From assembly GCA_029552985.1 (NCBI GenBank), contig JAKPDB010000176.1:64798-128797 (forward strand): a DNA stretch of 64,000 nucleotides. The letters are read 5' to 3'. Below are positions 729 to 20,965 of the stretch, piece after piece; within the stretch, counting starts at the first letter, position 1, and every line of letters starts with the position of its first letter. A program made the position numbers and the translations under genes. A model generated the notes under the pieces. The model was not told the origin of the DNA. It ran no database searches and was given only the letters and a program-made list of their open reading frames with translations. Source of the DNA: a bacterium (lineage in GTDB: Bacteria; Ratteibacteria; UBA8468; B48-G9; DTJG01).

Positions 729-2084
729 ATGAGAATAATCTTTTTTCTTACTACTGTGCTTTTTCTTGCGGGATGTGCTTCAGTTCCACTGGATACAACG
801 CGGGATGTGGCAAAGAAGTATTATATTCAAGGTCTTCTATATGAATCCGATGGAAATCTGTATGATGCGTTTATCATGTATCAAAAAGCACTTCTGCAAG
901 ATTCTCACAATAGTTTTCTGCTTGGAAAAACTGGTAAAATCTTGTTGAAAGAAAAAAGGTTCAAAGAAGCAGAAAAAGCATTTTTGAAAGCAATCTCTCT
1001 CAATGGAAATGAACCTGAAAACTTCCTTAATCTGGGCTTGACATATTACTATATGAAGTCCTATGATAACGCCATTAAGTGCCTGGAAAAAGGGTTGAAA
1101 ATAAAAGAATTTCCATCATATAGAATGGTCCTGTGTGATTTATATGTTTTAACCAATCGGTACGAGAAAGCCCTAGCATCTTACAAAATTTTGATTGATA
1201 AATTTCCTTCAAATTTTTTACTTTATTTCAACTCAGGTCTACTTCTGGTAAAAATGAATAAGCCAGAAGAAGCTGAAAAATATTTTCTTGAAACGATAAA
1301 ATTACAACCAGCGTTTGAAAAAAGTTATGTGGAACTGGCATCCATCTATTTGCAACGAAACGATACTGAAAATGCTCTAAAATATTATAAAAAGGCAACC
1401 GAAATATCTCCGGAAGACCCTGTACCCTATGAAAAAATGGTTGAGATTTACATGAAGCAAGGTGATTGGAATCAGGTAGAGGTAATTTTGACAAAAGCAA
1501 TCAAAGAAAATCTAAAATCCGCAATGCTCAATCAAATTGTTGGATTCATAAGTTTTCAAAACAAACAATATCAAGAGGCAGAAATTTATTATAAACGCGC
1601 ATTGATGATAAAAGAAACATCTGAAACATGGTTCAACCTTGGAGTTGTTTACGACAAAATGAATAAGAAAGATGAAATGGAAAAGTGTATTAGAAAGGCA
1701 ATACAGATGGACCCCAAAAATCATCTCGCACTTAATTATCTTGGATACTCATTACTACTTGAGGACAAAAACATTGATGAAGCGTTCGAGCTAATCCAGC
1801 AGGCAGTTCATCTTAACCCTGACAATGGTGCGTATCTTGACAGTCTTGGCTGGGCATATTATAAAAAAAACAATTATAAACTTGCAGAAAATTTTTTGCT
1901 AAAGGCGCAAAAAAAGGAATCTGATCCCGAAATCTTTGAACATCTTGGATATCTCTATTACAAAATGAAAAATCCAGTCAAGGCAATTTATTGGTGGGCA
2001 AGGGCCCAGGAATTGTCCCAGAAGCCTGAAATATCAAATATGATAGATGTGGCAAGACAGCAGTTATTGATTCACAAGCAATGA
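729..2084 (+). CDS. TPR-repeat lipoprotein
   Basis: The signal peptide has lipobox LFLAGC. The body is a run of 34-residue TPR-like units, e.g. FLNLGLTYYYMKSYDNAIKCLEKGLKI, WFNLGVVYDKMNKKDEMEKCIRKAIQMDPKN, LDSLGWAYYKKNNYKLAENFLLKAQ. Confidence 0.8.
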   Translation: MRIIFFLTTVLFLAGCASVPLDTTRDVAKKYYIQGLLYESDGNLYDAFIMYQKALLQDSHNSFLLGKTGKILLKEKRFKEAEKAFLKAISLNGNEPENFLNLGLTYYYMKSYDNAIKCLEKGLKIKEFPSYRMVLCDLYVLTNRYEKALASYKILIDKFPSNFLLYFNSGLLLVKMNKPEEAEKYFLETIKLQPAFEKSYVELASIYLQRNDTENALKYYKKATEISPEDPVPYEKMVEIYMKQGDWNQVEVILTKAIKENLKSAMLNQIVGFISFQNKQYQEAEIYYKRALMIKETSETWFNLGVVYDKMNKKDEMEKCIRKAIQMDPKNHLALNYLGYSLLLEDKNIDEAFELIQQAVHLNPDNGAYLDSLGWAYYKKNNYKLAENFLLKAQKKESDPEIFEHLGYLYYKMKNPVKAIYWWARAQELSQKPEISNMIDVARQQLLIHKQ

Positions 2085-3907
2085 GCACACTTCTTGAAAA
2101 AATCAATCAATCACCTGGCGCCATAAAACAGTTTACCAGGCAACAACTGGAACAACTATCTCAGGAAATCAGGAACGAAATTATAAACGTTGTTTCCAGC
2201 AATGGTGGACACCTTGCTTCCAACCTTGGAATCGTGGAAATTACTGTTGCACTTCATTACATTCTGAATATCCCGCCTGATAGAATCATATTTGATGTCG
2301 GCCACCAGACATATTCGCACAAATTACTTACAGGAAGATTCAGTCAATTCAGTACCCTCAGAAAATACAAAGGAGTTTCAGGATTTCCAAACCCCGAAGA
2401 GAGCGAAACAGACCTGTTTTTAATAGGGCACGCGGGCACAGCAATCTCAGCAGCTCTGGGTCTTCAGACCATTGAAGAAAGAAATAAAGGGAAAACGAAA
2501 ACAGTGGTTGTGATTGGAGATGGTAGTTTGACAAATGGAGTAACATTTGAAGGACTGAATAATTTGGGTTCATCCGGGAAAGATATTCTTGTTATACTCA
2601 ATGATAACAATTTTTCAATATCAAGAACTCGCGGAGCTTTATCTTATTATCTGACAAAACTGGTTACCATGCCCGCACTGATAAAATCGAAAGAAGAGAT
2701 AAAAGAAATTATTGAAAAAATTCCTGCTATAGGTGAGCAAATAGTCAAATTGAGCAAGGATCTTGAGCAAAAAACAAAGCATCTCATTATTCCTGGCGTA
2801 TTTTTTGAAAAACTCGGCATTCAATATTTCGGACCCATAGACGGAAATGACATCAATCAAATTTTAGATGTCTTACCAAATCTTTTGAACCAGCAGGGTC
2901 CAAAAATATTACACGCAATAACAAAAAAAGGGAAGGGATATATCCCGGCTGAAAAAAATCCTGAAAAGTATCATAGTATTGGACCTTTTAACATAGAAAC
3001 AGGTGAAGTTCTTATCAACACAACATCCACAGGAACGTTTGTTGGAAAAATTCTTGAAAAGTATGGAGAAAAATATGATTTTTATGTGATTACTTCTGCC
3101 ATGGAATACGGACTCGGGTTCGATGGATTTGCAAAAAAATTTCCAGATCGATTTTTTGACGTCGGTATAGCAGAAAGCCATAGCTTAATTTTTGCTGGAG
3201 GAATTGCAAAAACAGGGAAAAAAGTTTTTGTTGGAATTTACAGCACTTTTTTACAGAGAGCTTATGACCAGGTATTTCATGATGTTTGCCTTCAAAACTT
3301 ACCCGTTGTGATACTGGTTGACAGAGCCGGCATTGTATCTGGTGATGGTCCTACGCACCAGGGTATTTATGACCTTGCCTTCCTCAGAAGCATTCCTGGC
3401 ATTACAATATTTTGCCCATATTCTCTTAAAAATATCGAAGAAGTTCTCCAGCAATCTCTGAATTATCAAACACCTGTTGTAATCAGATATCCGCGCGATT
3501 TATTGCCAGAAGACGTGCAAGAGATAAAAAATAATGGTAAAATTCTTTGTCTCAGTCCAGGTTCAATGGCAGAAATTGCTTATCAGGCATGTATGTTTTT
3601 AAACCAACAAGGACTTCAAATAGATTTTATGCCTGTGAGCAGGATATGTCCGCTGGAGGAAAATGTGGAAAATATGTTACTATCGTATAAAAAAATTATA
3701 ACCTGTGAAGAAACAATGCTTGCCGGAGGTTTCGGCTCATTGATTCTTGAAATATGCAATCAAAAAAAACTGTCGCCTGAAATTTTACGAATAGGAATTC
3801 CTGACACATTTGTTGAAACAGGTTCAAGAGAAGAATTGTTGAAAAATTTCAATCTTGATAAAGGTGGTATCATAGAAAAGGTAAAAAACTTTTATGAAAA
3901 TATCTAA
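2081..3907 (+). CDS. dxs: 1-deoxy-D-xylulose-5-phosphate synthase
   Basis: 608 aa. Motifs: GGHLASNLGIVEITVALHY, GHQTYSHKLLTGR, a thiamine-diphosphate GDGSLTNG motif and transketolase-like central and C-terminal domains. ATGA overlap with the upstream gene. Confidence 0.95.
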   Translation: MSTLLEKINQSPGAIKQFTRQQLEQLSQEIRNEIINVVSSNGGHLASNLGIVEITVALHYILNIPPDRIIFDVGHQTYSHKLLTGRFSQFSTLRKYKGVSGFPNPEESETDLFLIGHAGTAISAALGLQTIEERNKGKTKTVVVIGDGSLTNGVTFEGLNNLGSSGKDILVILNDNNFSISRTRGALSYYLTKLVTMPALIKSKEEIKEIIEKIPAIGEQIVKLSKDLEQKTKHLIIPGVFFEKLGIQYFGPIDGNDINQILDVLPNLLNQQGPKILHAITKKGKGYIPAEKNPEKYHSIGPFNIETGEVLINTTSTGTFVGKILEKYGEKYDFYVITSAMEYGLGFDGFAKKFPDRFFDVGIAESHSLIFAGGIAKTGKKVFVGIYSTFLQRAYDQVFHDVCLQNLPVVILVDRAGIVSGDGPTHQGIYDLAFLRSIPGITIFCPYSLKNIEEVLQQSLNYQTPVVIRYPRDLLPEDVQEIKNNGKILCLSPGSMAEIAYQACMFLNQQGLQIDFMPVSRICPLEENVENMLLSYKKIITCEETMLAGGFGSLILEICNQKKLSPEILRIGIPDTFVETGSREELLKNFNLDKGGIIEKVKNFYENI

Positions 3908-11905: not shown

Positions 11906-12943
11906 TCAGTCAGACGTGAAAATCTTCGAAACGGCAACACATACATCATCTGCTGTAATATCATTCATGCATATAAATCCTTTTTTGCATTTTGACTCCA
12001 CCACACAGGGGAAACAATCTCTTTGAGTATGCAGAACAATATTTTTGTTACCAATTGGTCCATATCTCATCGGATTTCCGGGGCCAAAAATCGCAATCAC
12101 AGGGCATTTCATTGCAGAAGCAAGATGCATTGTGCCAGTGTCATTGGTAATTAATAATGCCGCACAGGAAAGAAGATATGCTAATTGTCTGAAAGTTATT
12201 TTTCCGGCAAGATTAAAAACTTCTGGATTATCAATTGCTCTTCTAATTTCCGCGGCAAGGTCGAACTCTTTATTGTTCCCAACTATCGCAATATTGATAT
12301 GATAATTTTGAATAATACGTTTTCCTACTTCTATAAAATTTTCTTTATCCCATCTTTTCTTCTCAAAAGCCGCACCTGGATTCATCACAACCACCTTCCT
12401 GCTACCATCTATCACCCCGATGTTTTTGAAGAATTCAAAATACGAGTGAATTTCACTATCAGTCAACGGAAAATACAGTTCCACTTTTTCATATTTTCCG
12501 AAAAGTGGTGTAAAAAATCTCAGTGTTCTTTCTGCTTCATGAGTTCTGAATTTATCAGAAAATAATTCTTTTGTAAAAAATGTCAACCTGTATCTACTTT
12601 TAAGAAAAAATGGTATCAGAGAATTCCTGAAATCAACCACAAGATCATATTTTTGATGTCTGAGCATTTTGATAAGCATTATCATACCGGTTTTTTTATC
12701 CCAGACGTAAAAGTGTGAAAACATCGGATTATCTCTTGCAAACTCAATCGCTCTTGGACCAACAACAATGTCAAATTCTGCGTTGTATAGTGCATCACGC
12801 ATCAATTTAATCGCGGGTGTTATAAGAAGGTTATCACCAATGGAACTCAAACCAATAATCAGTCCCCTGTTAATTATTTCCTTTTTGAATTTTCTTCGAA
12901 AAACCAAGTATATCTCCTTTCCTAGTACAGTATAATAACACAA
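11906..12943 (-). CDS. Glycosyltransferase family 9 (LPS heptosyltransferase-like)
   Basis: 345 aa. IGDNLLITPAI near the N-terminus, VVVMNPGAAFEKKRW, and C-terminal LITNDTGTMHLASAMKCPVIAIFGP, typical of RfaF/RfaC-type GT9. Confidence 0.85.
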   Translation of the reverse strand: MCYYTVLGKEIYLVFRRKFKKEIINRGLIIGLSSIGDNLLITPAIKLMRDALYNAEFDIVVGPRAIEFARDNPMFSHFYVWDKKTGMIMLIKMLRHQKYDLVVDFRNSLIPFFLKSRYRLTFFTKELFSDKFRTHEAERTLRFFTPLFGKYEKVELYFPLTDSEIHSYFEFFKNIGVIDGSRKVVVMNPGAAFEKKRWDKENFIEVGKRIIQNYHINIAIVGNNKEFDLAAEIRRAIDNPEVFNLAGKITFRQLAYLLSCAALLITNDTGTMHLASAMKCPVIAIFGPGNPMRYGPIGNKNIVLHTQRDCFPCVVESKCKKGFICMNDITADDVCVAVSKIFTSD

Positions 12944-12946
12944 TTT

Positions 12947-12975
12947 TTGACATTTTGCTTATTTTTCTGTAAAAT
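12947..12975 (+). promoter_or_regulatory. Sigma70-type promoter of tRNA-Lys
   Basis: TTGACA (12947-12952), 17-nt spacer, TAAAAT (12970-12975), 13 nt before the tRNA 5' end. Confidence 0.65.
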
Positions 12976-12988
12976 TAGTTGTCTCAAT

Positions 12989-13061
12989 GGGCCGCTAGCT
13001 CACCCGGCAGAGCACCGCCCTTTTAAGGCGGGGGCAGCAGGTTCGAGTCCTGCGCGGCCTA
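12989..13061 (+). tRNA. tRNA-Lys (anticodon UUU)
   Basis: Hand-folded 73-nt cloverleaf. Acceptor GGGCCGC/GCGGCCT, D arm GCTC-ACCCGGCA-GAGC, anticodon arm CCGCC-CTTTTAA-GGCGG, variable GGGCA, T arm GCAGG-TTCGAGT-CCTGC, discriminator A. CCA is not encoded. Confidence 0.9.
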
Positions 13062-13489
13062 CTTTCTTTCTCCAATCTGAAAGCAGGACGAGAATTGGAG
13101 CGAAGATGTATAGGTCTGAGCAAGCGAAGACCTATGCGGCTGGCCGACCCGAGCCGTTGTGAGAGGCGAGGGCGCCGAGTCCTGCGCGGCCTATCTTTTT
13201 TGCCAATGAAAGCAGGACGAGAATTGGAGCGAAGTCAGGAATTGCGAGCAAGCGTAGCAATTCCAGCGGCTGGCCGACCCGAGCCGTAGTGGGAGGCGAG
13301 GGCGCCGAGTCCTGCGCGGCCTACTTTCTTTCTCCAATCTGAAAGCAGGACGAGAATTGGAGCGAAGTCAGGAATTGCGAGCAAGCGTAGCAATTCCAGC
13401 GGCTGGCCGACCCGAGCCGTTGTGAGAGGCGAGGGCGCCGAGTCCTGCGCGGCCTATCTTTTTTGCCAATGAAAGCAGGACGAGAATTG
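13045..13489 (+). repeat. Tandem ~131-nt repeat array (3.4 units) seeded in the 3' end of tRNA-Lys
   Basis: Unit starts are 13045, 13177, 13307 and 13440 (periods 132/130/133). Each unit begins with an exact copy of the tRNA's last 17 nt, GAGTCCTGCGCGGCCTA. The core GAAAGCAGGACGAGAATTGGAGCGAAG...GGCTGGCCGACCCGAGCCG...GGCGAGGGCGCC is conserved. Details are in the findings. Confidence 0.95.
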
Positions 13490-13546
13490 AAACCAGTGTT
13501 GAGGTATTTTTAAATCTGATTAAGTCCATCGTGTCCAGGTAAAAAG

Positions 13547-13574
13547 TTGAAAAATTCTACGAAACTATTAAAAT
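13547..13574 (+). promoter_or_regulatory. Putative sigma70-type promoter of the ABC exporter gene
   Basis: TTGAAA (13547-13552), 16-nt spacer, TAAAAT (13569-13574), then RBS GAGGAG and ATG 13605. Confidence 0.5.
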
Positions 13575-13604
13575 AGATTTCGAGTTGACTGAGAGGAGAC
13601 ATCC

Positions 13605-15446
13605 ATGTTTCATGGACCTGGCTTTCATAGAGCAGCAAGATTTAAATATGACATCGATGACCAGGTTAAGGGCACAGTCCGCATTACAAGATTGTTTGGA
13701 TATCTTAAGCCATATAAATACCAGATCTCTTTTGCTTTATTCATTTCCATATGTGTCACAGTTTTGAATCTTGTTCCGCCAAGAATTATTGGAATTATCA
13801 TTGATAGGGCGCTTGGCAAAAAAGAACTATCAATACTTGTTAAAATGTGCTTTTCTTTACTTTCTATCTACATTATCGTTAATTTATTAAATGGGGTAAA
13901 AATTTTCCTAATGGGAAAACTCGGTCAAAAAATCACATATGACCTGTGGCAGGAAGTGTATAGAAACATCCAGCGACTTTCTTTTAGATTCTTCGATGAA
14001 AATCAAACTGGTAACATTATGGCACGAATTACCAGCGATATTACAGCTGTTGAAAGAGTTGTTGTTGACGGACTGGATACCACCATTATCGCATCTTTGA
14101 CCCTTGTCGGAATTACCTTCGTACTGTTCTGGATGAACTGGAAACTTGCATTGGTTACAATGATACCCATACCTCTACTTGCTTTTATGGCTTATTTAAT
14201 TACAGTCAAGGCACACGCAATATACAGAGAAGTTAGAAAAAAAATGGGTGAAATAAGTGCGTTATTACAGGATAGTATTTCTGGTGTCAGGGAAACGAGA
14301 AGTTTTGCAAGAGAAGAATATGAAATTCATAGATTAAGCACAAAAAGCAGTGAATATGTGCAGACCAACATTCAGGCAATAAAATTATGGGCAACATTTT
14401 CTCCATCAATTATAATCACAACAACAATCGGAACTTTTCTGGTACTTCTTTTTGGTGGGAAAATGGCTATTATCAATCAGAGTATATCCACAGGAGAAAT
14501 CATTTCATTTCTTTTTTACCTCAATCTTTTCTATCAACCAATTCATCAATTAAACATGGTCAATCACATGCTTCAGCACGCAAGGGCGTCAAGCGAACGA
14601 ATTTTTGAAATCGTTGATGCAGAACCAGATGTCAAAGAAGCAAAAGATGCCGTACCGTTTAGACGACCCATAAAAGGTGAAGTCGTTTTCAAGAATGTTC
14701 TTTTTTCATACAAACCAGGTATAGAAGTTCTACATGGAATAACTTTTAAGGTAAATCCAGGAGAAACCATCGCACTTGTAGGACCAACAGGCGCAGGAAA
14801 AACTACTATTGTCAGTTTGATACCCCGTTTTTACGACGTTGATTCCGGACAAATCTGCATCGATGGGGTAGATATCCGTAAATATAAACTGAAAGAGCTC
14901 AGAGAAGCCATTGGCATCGTAATGCAGGAACCATTTCTATTCAATGGTACCATTTTAGAGAATATCGCCTACGGACGCCTTGACGCAAAAATAGAAGAAA
15001 TCGTTGAAGCAGCAAAGCTTGCGAATGCACACAACTTTATCATAAAGTTACCTGATGGATACCATCACCAAATTGGCGAAAGGGGAGTTAAACTTTCTGT
15101 GGGAGAGAAACAAAGAATTGCTATCGCGCGCGCGATTCTCAAAAATCCTCCTATTCTAATTTTTGATGAAGCCACTTCTTCTGTTGATAATGAAACAGAA
15201 GCATTGATACAGGAAGCAATTTCCAGACTATTAAAAAATAGAACATCCTTCGTCATCGCACACAGGTTATCTACAGTAATGAACGCGCACAAAATACTGG
15301 TTATTAATGAAGGAAACATTGTTGAGACCGGTACTCACAGTGAACTTCTATCAAAAGGTGGCTTATACAAAAAGCTTTACGAAATCCAGTTTAAGAAAAC
15401 AATCTCGAATTTGGAATATTTTAATGTCGTAAATACAAACCAGTAA
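13605..15446 (+). CDS. ABC exporter, fused permease/ATPase (MsbA/lipid or multidrug exporter type)
   Basis: 613 aa. N-terminal 6-TM ABC_membrane domain. NBD with Walker A GPTGAGKTT, signature LSVGEKQR, Walker B ILIFDEATSSVD, H-loop IAHRLS. Confidence 0.9.
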   Translation: MFHGPGFHRAARFKYDIDDQVKGTVRITRLFGYLKPYKYQISFALFISICVTVLNLVPPRIIGIIIDRALGKKELSILVKMCFSLLSIYIIVNLLNGVKIFLMGKLGQKITYDLWQEVYRNIQRLSFRFFDENQTGNIMARITSDITAVERVVVDGLDTTIIASLTLVGITFVLFWMNWKLALVTMIPIPLLAFMAYLITVKAHAIYREVRKKMGEISALLQDSISGVRETRSFAREEYEIHRLSTKSSEYVQTNIQAIKLWATFSPSIIITTTIGTFLVLLFGGKMAIINQSISTGEIISFLFYLNLFYQPIHQLNMVNHMLQHARASSERIFEIVDAEPDVKEAKDAVPFRRPIKGEVVFKNVLFSYKPGIEVLHGITFKVNPGETIALVGPTGAGKTTIVSLIPRFYDVDSGQICIDGVDIRKYKLKELREAIGIVMQEPFLFNGTILENIAYGRLDAKIEEIVEAAKLANAHNFIIKLPDGYHHQIGERGVKLSVGEKQRIAIARAILKNPPILIFDEATSSVDNETEALIQEAISRLLKNRTSFVIAHRLSTVMNAHKILVINEGNIVETGTHSELLSKGGLYKKLYEIQFKKTISNLEYFNVVNTNQ

Positions 15447-20867: not shown

Positions 20868-20940
20868 GCCCCCATCGACTAGCGGCCAAGGTCACCACTC
20901 TTTCAAGGTGGTAGCGCCGGTTCGATTCCGGCTGGGGGCG
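20868..20940 (+). tRNA. tRNA-Glu (anticodon UUC)
   Basis: Hand-folded 73-nt cloverleaf. Acceptor GCCCCCA/TGGGGGC, anticodon arm CCACT-CTTTCAA-GGTGG, T arm GCCGG-TTCGATT-CCGGC, discriminator G. Confidence 0.9.
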
Positions 20941-20965
20941 CATAAAATCATAAAGGATACAGACA

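Follow-up and report, generated by a model that had tools for sequence, protein, structure and literature searches.

We analysed a stretch of bacterial DNA of 64,000 nucleotides (the window), in which a tRNA-Lys(UUU) gene placed at 12989 to 13061 or 13062 by ARAGORN and Rfam (tRNA, 61.9 bits) is followed by a tandem array that belongs to a family of structured elements found beside tRNA genes. Tandem Repeats Finder delimits the array at 13044-13489 with a period of 133 and 3.4 copies (score 675), and its GC content is 0.57-0.60 against 0.30-0.40 in the surroundings. A first reading of the sequence alone (the original prediction) had described 3.4 GC-rich units of ~131 nt after the tRNA, which ARAGORN, Rfam, Tandem Repeats Finder and the GC profile bear out, and had claimed that every unit boundary is an exact copy of the last 17 nt of the tRNA. 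This 17-mer, GAGTCCTGCGCGGCCTA, does occur exactly at 13045, 13177, 13307 and 13440, with 0 occurrences in 100 shuffles, and a further invariant sequence, GAAAGCAGGACGAGAATTG, is common to the array units (n=4). The locus contains the following features, P1 to P4 being the helices of the fold described below.

12947-12975, + strand: near-consensus sigma-70-like promoter TTGACA-17-TAAAAT, 14 nt upstream of tRNA-Lys
12989-13061, + strand: tRNA-Lys(UUU), called by ARAGORN and Rfam
13042-13053, + strand: T-loop and T-stem 3' strand of tRNA-Lys, TTCGAGTCCTGC, complemented by the guide of the element
13045-13061, + strand: last 17 nt of tRNA-Lys, the sequence repeated behind each unit
13062-13193, + strand: unit 1, 132 nt, covariance-model score 105.1 bits
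13062-13082, + strand: pyrimidine-rich leader of unit 1
13083-13089, + strand: guide of unit 1, also the P1 5' strand, GCAGGAC; GCAGGACGAGAA extends to 13094
13097-13176, + strand: core of unit 1
13110-13135, + strand: P2 hairpin of unit 1, allele A, ATAGGTCT, loop GAGCAAGCGA, AGACCTAT
13142-13176, + strand: irregular P3-P4 hairpin of unit 1, GGCCGACCC-GA-GCC, loop GTTGTGAGA, GGC-GA-GGGCGCC
13177-13193, + strand: repeat of the tRNA 3' end in unit 1, with the P1 3' strand GTCCTGC at 13179-13185
13194-13323, + strand: unit 2, 130 nt, leader flavour 2, 74.5 bits; guide GCAGGAC 13212-13218, core 13226-13306, repeat 13307-13323
13238-13264, + strand: P2 of unit 2, allele B, GGAATTGC/GCAATTCC
13324-13456, + strand: unit 3, 133 nt, leader flavour 1, 70.2 bits; guide 13345-13351, core 13359-13439, repeat 13440-13456
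13371-13397, + strand: P2 of unit 3, allele B; the P4 loop of this unit is that of unit 1
13457-13489, + strand: terminal partial unit, leader flavour 2 plus guide, stopping at the core start (between GAATTG and AAACC)

Within the units the loop GAGCAAGCG is invariant and, as originally described, the 8-bp stem that carries it is fully swapped between ATAGGTCT/AGACCTAT at 13110-13135 and GGAATTGC/GCAATTCC at 13238-13264 and 13371-13397. The units had also been said to alternate between two flavours, which is true of their leaders and tails and not of the swapped hairpin, the P2 alleles following one another in the order A, B, B, and unit 3 is a mosaic of units 1 and 2. The P3-P4 hairpin of unit 1 adjoins the P1 3' strand with a spacer of 0 nt. 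In the leader of the same unit CTCCAAT (13070-13076) can pair with ATTGGAG (13094-13100) and enclose the guide in a loop, a pairing of leader and core start (involving GGAGCGAAG) that other loci do not conserve and that is weaker with leader flavour 2. The promoter at 12947-12975 is the only promoter-like site ahead of the msbA promoter (13547-13574), and neither a promoter-like site nor a canonical terminator was found inside the array, in line with the earlier claim of a promoter ahead of the tRNA and no terminator before the array. Co-transcription of the array from the tRNA promoter is plausible on this arrangement of signals.

Relatives of the array were found with a gapped pattern made from three conserved pieces of the unit, which in a metagenome scan returned 22 loci of which 18 were real, and with a slightly relaxed pattern, which in GTDB genomes returned 20 loci of which seven were real, all other matches in both scans being chance matches in GC-rich DNA. 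The real genome matches lie in three GTDB species genomes, 'bacterium AMR_MDS_3664', a Tibetan Candidatus Omnitrophota metagenome-assembled genome (MAG) and a Candidatus Ratteibacteria MAG, and the hosts altogether comprise at least three Omnitrophota/Ratteibacteria-like species. Organisms of this kind are present in anaerobic-digester samples (for example JGI 3300025631 and the ERZ795046/060 studies). Nine tRNA species carry the element (Ala-GGC, Arg-CCG, His-GTG, Leu-CAG, Leu-TAG, Lys-CTT, Lys-TTT, Ser-TGA and Tyr-GTA), and at every real locus with enough upstream contig it lies directly 3' of the tRNA and on the same strand, the exception being L037, whose contig begins inside the tRNA. Copies number from one to at least three per locus and single-copy loci are common. 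A covariance model trained on four copies retrieves every copy at 43-136 bits and nothing else, and on the window it finds only the three array units. Such a model and a search of relatives had been proposed with the original prediction, as had a look at other tRNA genes; a conserved family was indeed recovered beside nine tRNA species and similar elements do stand at other tRNA genes in relatives, while the tRNA-Glu(UUC) of the window (20868-20941) is without a copy, no covariance-model match occurring elsewhere in the 64 kb. The model likewise finds no element at tRNA-Met, tRNA-Gly-CCC and tRNA-Arg(TCT) at other loci.

Our analysis shows, beyond what had been predicted, that the array is one locus of a multi-copy family which is exclusive to tRNA genes, has a single orientation and is cognate to the adjacent tRNA in both of its tRNA-derived flanks. 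We hold the existence of the family and its fold to be close to certain. A plain minisatellite, that is a functionless local duplication of the tRNA 3' flank, would account for the near-identical tandem copies in the window; it is refuted by ~25 loci, nine tRNAs, at least three species, covariation and the common single copies, and retains practically no probability. Rfam 15 searched with E up to 10 gave nothing overlapping the short-form units (window 12500-14000), only the tRNA being called in this region, in agreement with the earlier statement that no RNA family matches. For a copy of the long form (L041) Rfam matches were at chance level only, Ms_AS-1 (12.9 bits, E = 8.3) and permuted tmRNA (11.7 bits, E = 4.6), neither of which comes near its gathering score. 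Distant-mode blastn against INPHARED phages and PLSDB plasmids gave only chance GC-rich matches of 30-40 nt, a pattern scan of IMG/VR gave 18 matches that were all unrelated, and full-text literature searches turned up no description of such an element. This family of structured elements specific to tRNA 3' flanks is previously undescribed.

The element measures ~110-130 bp in a short form and ~175-195 bp in a long form and has a constant order of parts. A leader of 12-25 nt, mostly pyrimidine-rich and poorly conserved, precedes a guide of 10-12 nt that is the reverse complement of positions 54-65 of the adjacent tRNA (T-loop and 3' strand of the T-stem), and then come a core of 80-82 nt (144-145 nt in the long form, which holds a 64-nt insert) and a direct repeat of the tRNA 3' end. 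By Watson-Crick comparison of the guide with positions 54-65 of its cognate tRNA, 10-12 of the 12 positions match in all nine tRNA cases, as in tRNA-His (AGGGGATTTGAA versus TTCAAATCCCCT) and in the window, where 13083-13094 matches 13042-13053. A matrix of guide by repeat pairings with G-U allowed was abandoned as non-discriminating, the T-arms being too alike, and the Watson-Crick comparison is clearer. The motif AGCAGG had been noticed in the units, where it is present, and taken for a copy of the T-stem 5' strand, which it is not: it is part of GCAGGAC(GAGAA), the reverse complement of the T-loop and T-stem 3' strand.

The direct repeat always begins at T-loop position 57, directly after TTC and with the sequence RANYCC..., and in terminal copies it is 19, 19, 20, 21, 21 and 30 nt long, which takes it 2-4 nt (once 13 nt) beyond the discriminator base. 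As genomic sequence past the tRNA end is copied, the repeat derives from the gene or its precursor and not from the mature tRNA. In the tRNA-Leu(CAG) gene (L035/L059) the CCA end seems to be encoded (GGCACCAA), and the repeat of its element includes the CCA; most other targeted tRNAs have no clearly encoded CCA. The guide and the first 6-13 nt of the repeat form the closing helix P1, which has 6-13 bp in every copy, so that in the units nucleotides 57-60 of the T-loop are paired with the guide and there is no T-loop. The acceptor 3' strand in the repeat is without a partner and decays in L028 and in the second units of L040 and L062. The match to the tRNA has shrunk to the first 9 nt of the repeat in L028 and in L040 unit 2, where the P1 part is intact, and in L062 unit 2 the repeat has drifted from CCTCCCC to CCTTTTC with the guide changed in step, keeping a helix of 12 bp. 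P1 is selected in its own right. At all loci the proximal copy is the intact tRNA end and, since the P1 part is kept while the acceptor tail decays, the readings as a minihelix with a CCA-processable end and as a spliced distal exon both fail. This disposes of the tRNA-like, minihelix-bearing or CCA-processed RNA that had first been suggested, as no T-loop forms and the repeated acceptor strand is unpaired and decays distally.

The geometry of this repeat brings in the explanation by integrase-island scars, or remnants resembling cis-mobilizable elements (CIMEs), in which the repeat would be the core of an attachment (att) site made by a P4-type tyrosine integrase whose crossover lay in the T-loop, the element core would be the fused attL and attR arms left by an interior deletion, and the array would stem from tandem accretion. 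Islands that integrate at tRNA genes classically leave direct repeats of 17-21 nt that run from the T-loop to the end of the tRNA, and tandem accretion at tRNA-Lys 3' ends is known from streptococcal integrative and conjugative elements and CIMEs. The repeats described here are of just this kind, and the 64-nt insert of the long form sits at one point of the core, possibly the former site of an island body. One core beside nine tRNAs with cognate repeats on both sides is a different matter, because a fixed attP would make chimeric tRNAs; nor did we find an integrase in the loci or window open reading frames (ORFs) examined, or a phage, plasmid or IMG/VR match, and double-stranded protein-binding arms would not be expected to have hairpins in which loops are conserved and stems compensate, or a G-U excess specific to one strand. 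Scars of this type, which the original prediction had named as the finding that would count against it, fit the 17-21-nt direct repeat from the T-loop and do not fit the single core at nine tRNAs or the failure to find an integrase at the loci examined, and we consider this explanation very unlikely.

An alignment with MAFFT and RNAalifold misaligned the two hairpin alleles and the register of the guide and was replaced with a covariance-model alignment. The resulting model is a three-way junction of P1, P2 (loop GAGCAAGCG) and a P3-P4 hairpin with a tandem G-A internal loop, P3 being GGC(C)G(A)CCC/GGGCGCC and P4, beyond the internal loop, GCC/GGC. For the short forms (alignment A6) 95.1% of cells in paired columns are paired compared with 81.0% in column shuffles, none of 500 shuffles reaching the observed level, and 15 of 30 pairs have changed on both sides, with slid controls at 36-44%; the covariation result is similar in the larger alignment A5. 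At least four versions of the P2 stem exist (AGGUCU/AGACCU, AGGUUC/GAACCU, AAGUCC/GGACUU and GGAAUUGC/GCAAUUCC), and these further compensatory variants in relatives confirm that the swapped-stem hairpin is a real, selected helix. One P4 pair occurs as C-G, U-A and G-C, and P3 has changed from C-G to U-A in L062 and L072. The second hairpin of the original prediction, GCGGCT/AGCCGT, is compatible with the relatives (95.5% of cells paired) and has no double change and no excess over shuffles; it overlaps P4, which does covary, and the longer overlapping hairpin GGC(C)G(A)CCC-GA-GCC...GGC-GA-GGGCGCC has compensatory changes.

G-U cells outnumber A-C cells by 37 to 11 overall and by 27 to 3 in P2, which identifies the tRNA-sense strand as the folded one, and together with the covariation this upholds the earlier view of conserved, structured, non-coding units read on the tRNA strand. 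The folded strand fits RNA read through from the tRNA promoter, although it could also be single-stranded DNA. Folding energies of the whole array and of single units (z -0.7 to -2.6) are weak or not significant and by themselves uninformative, with z of about -0.1 to -0.2 for the minus strand. The conserved single-stranded motifs are GGAGCGAAG, GAGCAAGCG and GUAGUGGGA. A pseudoknot of the loop sequence GGCCG with the repeated acceptor strand CGGCC was considered and rejected, the loop being constant across tRNAs with unrelated acceptor stems. In the long form (L027, L031, L040, L041 and L046) a two-hairpin expansion of 64 nt is found at the bulged C of P3 (alignment A7, columns 9-73), and its hairpin Pb shows changes from C-G to U-A and from C-G through U-G to U-A. 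The sequence GCGATGA...CTGA in the first expansion hairpin is reminiscent of box C/D or kink-turn signatures, and tandem G-A motifs recur between P3 and P4 and in the P1 of the window; these motifs hint at a kink-turn-binding protein as a possible partner.

Occupancy by the element is patchy among relatives. In the window species the site between tRNA-Lys(UUU) and msbA holds the element, as it does in AMR_MDS_3664, whose msbA is 92% identical, and in GCA_029564245.1 (77%), where the copy is divergent. The site is empty in GCA_964532995.1 (msbA 81%) and SRR31359994 (84%), where a near-identical tRNA is followed directly by its own trailer and the msbA promoter. For the tRNA-Lys locus of AMR_MDS_3664 the form is short in L037 and long in L046. 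P2 stems are shared within a genome and differ between genomes, AMR_MDS_3664 having AGGUUC at three tRNAs and the Ratteibacteria genome AAGUCC at two. The copies at Leu-TAG and Arg-CCG have homologous leaders (CACTCTTCTCTGAAAGGGAGTTGAA versus CACTTCTCTGAAGGAGTCGAA), and their guides are distinguished by a C/T change at the point of difference between the two T-loops and by two bases in length at the end paired with the T-stem, as might be expected of sister copies retargeted by a change of guide.

The best explanation of these findings is, we think on balance, that the array consists of three and a half copies of a non-autonomous, tRNA-homing, structured non-coding element. An origin by some kind of insertion is probable, homing directed by the guide is a possibility that we rate somewhat short of even, and our confidence in any particular insertion chemistry is low. 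We infer that the element is mobile now or was so recently. In the mechanism that we propose the guide would base-pair with T-arm sequence and so select the tRNA gene, and insertion would occur a few nt past the tRNA end with duplication of the target from position 57 on (19-21 nt), so that the tRNA would stay intact and the duplicated half of the T-arm would become the 3' strand of the closing helix. The fixed junction, between C56 and R57, lies inside the guide-target duplex and the other junction is variable. In form this recalls the P1/P10 arrangement of group I introns as well as target-primed insertion, with its precise 3' and variable 5' junction, although the core shows no feature that defines known introns or ribozymes. 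Duplication is favoured over an att core borne by the element because both copies are cognate at nine tRNAs, for which a fixed attP would need chimeric tRNAs. Expression would be by read-through from the tRNA promoter, arrays would grow by reinsertion at the same tRNA and/or by unequal crossover between repeats of 17-50 nt, and gene conversion would mix the units. An enzyme would act in trans, and the inserted strand could be RNA or DNA. A more daring variant, which we regard as improbable, makes the 80-nt core itself a catalytic or guide-bearing RNA and the whole a miniature self-inserting element. Here the 5' guide would dock on the tRNA T-arm (RNA or single-stranded tDNA), the 3' end of the core would be joined between C56 and R57 in the manner of reverse splicing, and repair synthesis or reverse transcription would restore the tRNA 3' end.

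The homing-element explanation has to be weighed against a host-retained functional RNA module that is not mobile now. Such a module would use the tRNA promoters, be released by tRNA 3' processing and bind a protein or RNA partner through the loops GGAGCGAAG, GAGCAAGCG and GUAGUGGGA, with gene conversion keeping the copies alike and with T-arm sequence in the closing helix only from its origin beside tRNAs. The stability of the core speaks for it: at Arg-CCG, Leu-CAG and Ser-TGA the element is present in two species per locus, and there the leaders have diverged like the flanks (~20-30%) while the core, with its compensatory stems, is almost unchanged. Compensatory change has moreover kept P1 despite its departure from the tRNA, the G-U excess points to RNA on the tRNA strand, the only promoter is upstream of the tRNA and no mobility gene was found near the copies examined. 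Such a module fits poorly with the absence of the element at tRNA-Met, Gly-CCC, Arg-TCT and the Glu-TTC of the window, with the emptiness of the same tRNA-Lys locus in two close relatives and with a copy number that ranges from one to at least three per locus, and something like insertion is needed to account for cognate repeats of 19-21 nt at nine unrelated loci. We consider a resident host RNA unlikely, although it deserves to be kept in view.

Several of our findings weigh against a homing element. The nearly invariant core at the three loci occupied in two species, which also fits a host-retained RNA, means that purifying selection has acted there over a long time or that the copies are continually homogenised. 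Target-site duplication is deduced from the geometry of the repeats and not from an exact pair of empty and filled sites in near-identical strains. The arrays in the window and L027 and probably that in L062 (degenerate) end with repeat, leader and guide at most 2 nt from the boundary between guide and core, which simple insertion with duplication does not predict, other arrays stopping right after the repeat; processing or recombination may take place at this boundary. The strict pattern matched only three GTDB species, so the phylogenetic depth is small and the covariation partly reflects shared ancestry. Finally, no integrase, transposase, reverse transcriptase, HUH or cas gene was found within 5-10 kb of the copies examined nor among the window ORFs tested, and no autonomous, ORF-bearing version of the element was found among the loci.

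The neighbours in question were annotated with Pfam at loci L001-L008, L033, L040 and L056 together with 21 window ORFs. The window genes tested are housekeeping genes (heptosyltransferase, EF-P, dTDP-sugar enzymes, DXP synthase, RecG, LigA, LeuRS and type IV pilus/secretion), which agrees with the original statement that no integrase, cas or reverse transcriptase gene is adjacent, and the best named relatives of the neighbouring MsbA-type ATP-binding cassette (ABC) exporter are found in Candidatus Omnitrophota and Ratteibacteria MAGs. In a relative with an MsbA 79% identical (L006 1100-2760, L007 and L008) there is no tRNA-Lys upstream of msbA, and the region holds small ORFs (59-83 aa) without a Pfam match, no tandem repeat and no tRNA. 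The number of units in the window may depend on the assembly, since another assembly of the window species (L001, 2648-2890) has 1.4 units compared with 3.4 and its terminal guide shows an A-to-G change, and the contigs of L002 and L003 start inside the array; 1.4 versus 3.4 units could be real copy-number variation or short-read collapse. Contigs often end inside the element as expected of a dispersed repeat. Downstream of several of the tRNA-element loci lies a second repeat family, whose short palindromic units, CCCCCTTT(G/T)TAAA(A)GGGGG or CCTTCCTTTACAAAGGAAGG in type, occur in clusters of several copies in an intergenic region (L031 ~2387-2530, minus strand; L035 ~1874-2080, minus strand; L039 1-180, minus strand; L072 150-470).

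If the homing-element explanation holds, this would be a new bacterial non-coding family of unusual design whose core reuses the copied T-arm of its target as a strand of its closing helix, and its target would be chosen by base pairing with a universal feature of an RNA gene that is left undisrupted. This would bear on the safe harbours of small non-autonomous elements, on the reason why tRNA 3' ends are universal hot spots of integration and on possible undiscovered compact RNA-guided insertion systems. Were the core also self-inserting it would represent a new class of RNA-guided mobile element or ribozyme, programmable through a guide of 10-12 nt and far smaller than group I or II introns. 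If the element is instead a host RNA, it would be a new multi-copy class of structured RNA in a phylum without cultured representatives. The element explains assembly breaks at tRNA genes in these organisms and is a warning that repeats of tRNA 3' ends are not always integrase scars.

Several known systems can be set aside as identities for the element. Curated RNA families (hammerhead, twister, pistol, hatchet, hepatitis delta virus-like, group I and II, transfer-messenger RNA, RNase P, and retron or reverse transcriptase RNAs) have no Rfam 15 match, and ARAGORN and Rfam call only the tRNA itself. A likeness of GAGCCGU to group II domain V lacks the required 3' strand and an Rfam match, a primer-binding site is contradicted by a repeat that runs into the genomic trailer and not into CCA, and a T-loop intron made of the element and the first 3'-end copy fails as it is the distal copy that decays, the proximal one being the intact tRNA end throughout. 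In a miniature inverted-repeat transposable element dependent on a DDE transposase one would look for terminal inverted repeats shared by all copies and a short target duplication of constant length; here the only end-to-end inverted repeat is P1, which varies with the tRNA, and the duplication is variable and at least 19-21 nt long. A CRISPR array does not fit with ~115 of 131 nt constant, a variable part that is a self-complementary stem with four to five variants family-wide and no cas gene found, and a type III toxin-antitoxin (ToxI-like) locus does not fit with a downstream gene for an MsbA-type ABC exporter and unrelated housekeeping neighbours at other loci.

Other systems are closer in their logic. 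The P1/P10 arrangement of group I introns also has a 5'-proximal guide that pairs both upstream (UUC of the T-loop) and downstream (57-65) of a break point within the guide-target duplex, and also lies inside a tRNA transcript. The element differs in its 80-nt core of three helices without P3-P9 architecture or Rfam intron match, in ending with ...GGGCGCC without a terminal G, in having a C-G and not a U-G pair at the junction of C56 and R57, and in leaving the tRNA uninterrupted with a decaying distal 'exon' copy; as the distal copy decays, splicing is not needed to make the tRNA. Members of IS200/IS605 and palindrome-associated transposable elements share structured hairpins, one active strand, target choice by an internal guide and non-autonomous copies, whereas IS200/IS605 elements have guides of 4-5 nt, no target duplication and a need for TnpA, compared with a guide of 10-12 nt and a repeat of 19-21 nt here. 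Neither TnpA nor TnpB was seen in ~300 kb of loci from incomplete genomes, and the repeat argues against membership in the palindrome-associated group unless the element itself carries the tRNA end. Casposons and Cas1 integration are known for long target duplications and a preference for tRNA gene 3' ends; casposons have terminal inverted repeats, their own Cas1 and kilobases of length, and no cas gene was found around the element. R2-type retroelements and short interspersed nuclear elements, which are transcribed together with a host RNA gene and insert by target-primed reverse transcription, resemble it in using one class of RNA gene in the orientation of the host gene, apparently without a promoter of their own, with a precise 3' junction, a variable 5' junction or duplication length and a target-homologous 3' tail, and differ from it in that the element has bacterial hosts, is very short, leaves the host gene undisrupted and has no reverse transcriptase identified. 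With P4-integrase islands and CIMEs the element shares its place 3' of an intact tRNA, the direct repeat of 17-21 nt from the T-loop and the tandem arrays. It has the T-loop direct repeat of these islands and no single att specificity, being ~110-190 bp long without cargo, with no recombinase gene found at the loci annotated and with nine cognate tRNAs, and it sets itself apart from them by its own target-complementary segment and its strand-specific covarying fold.

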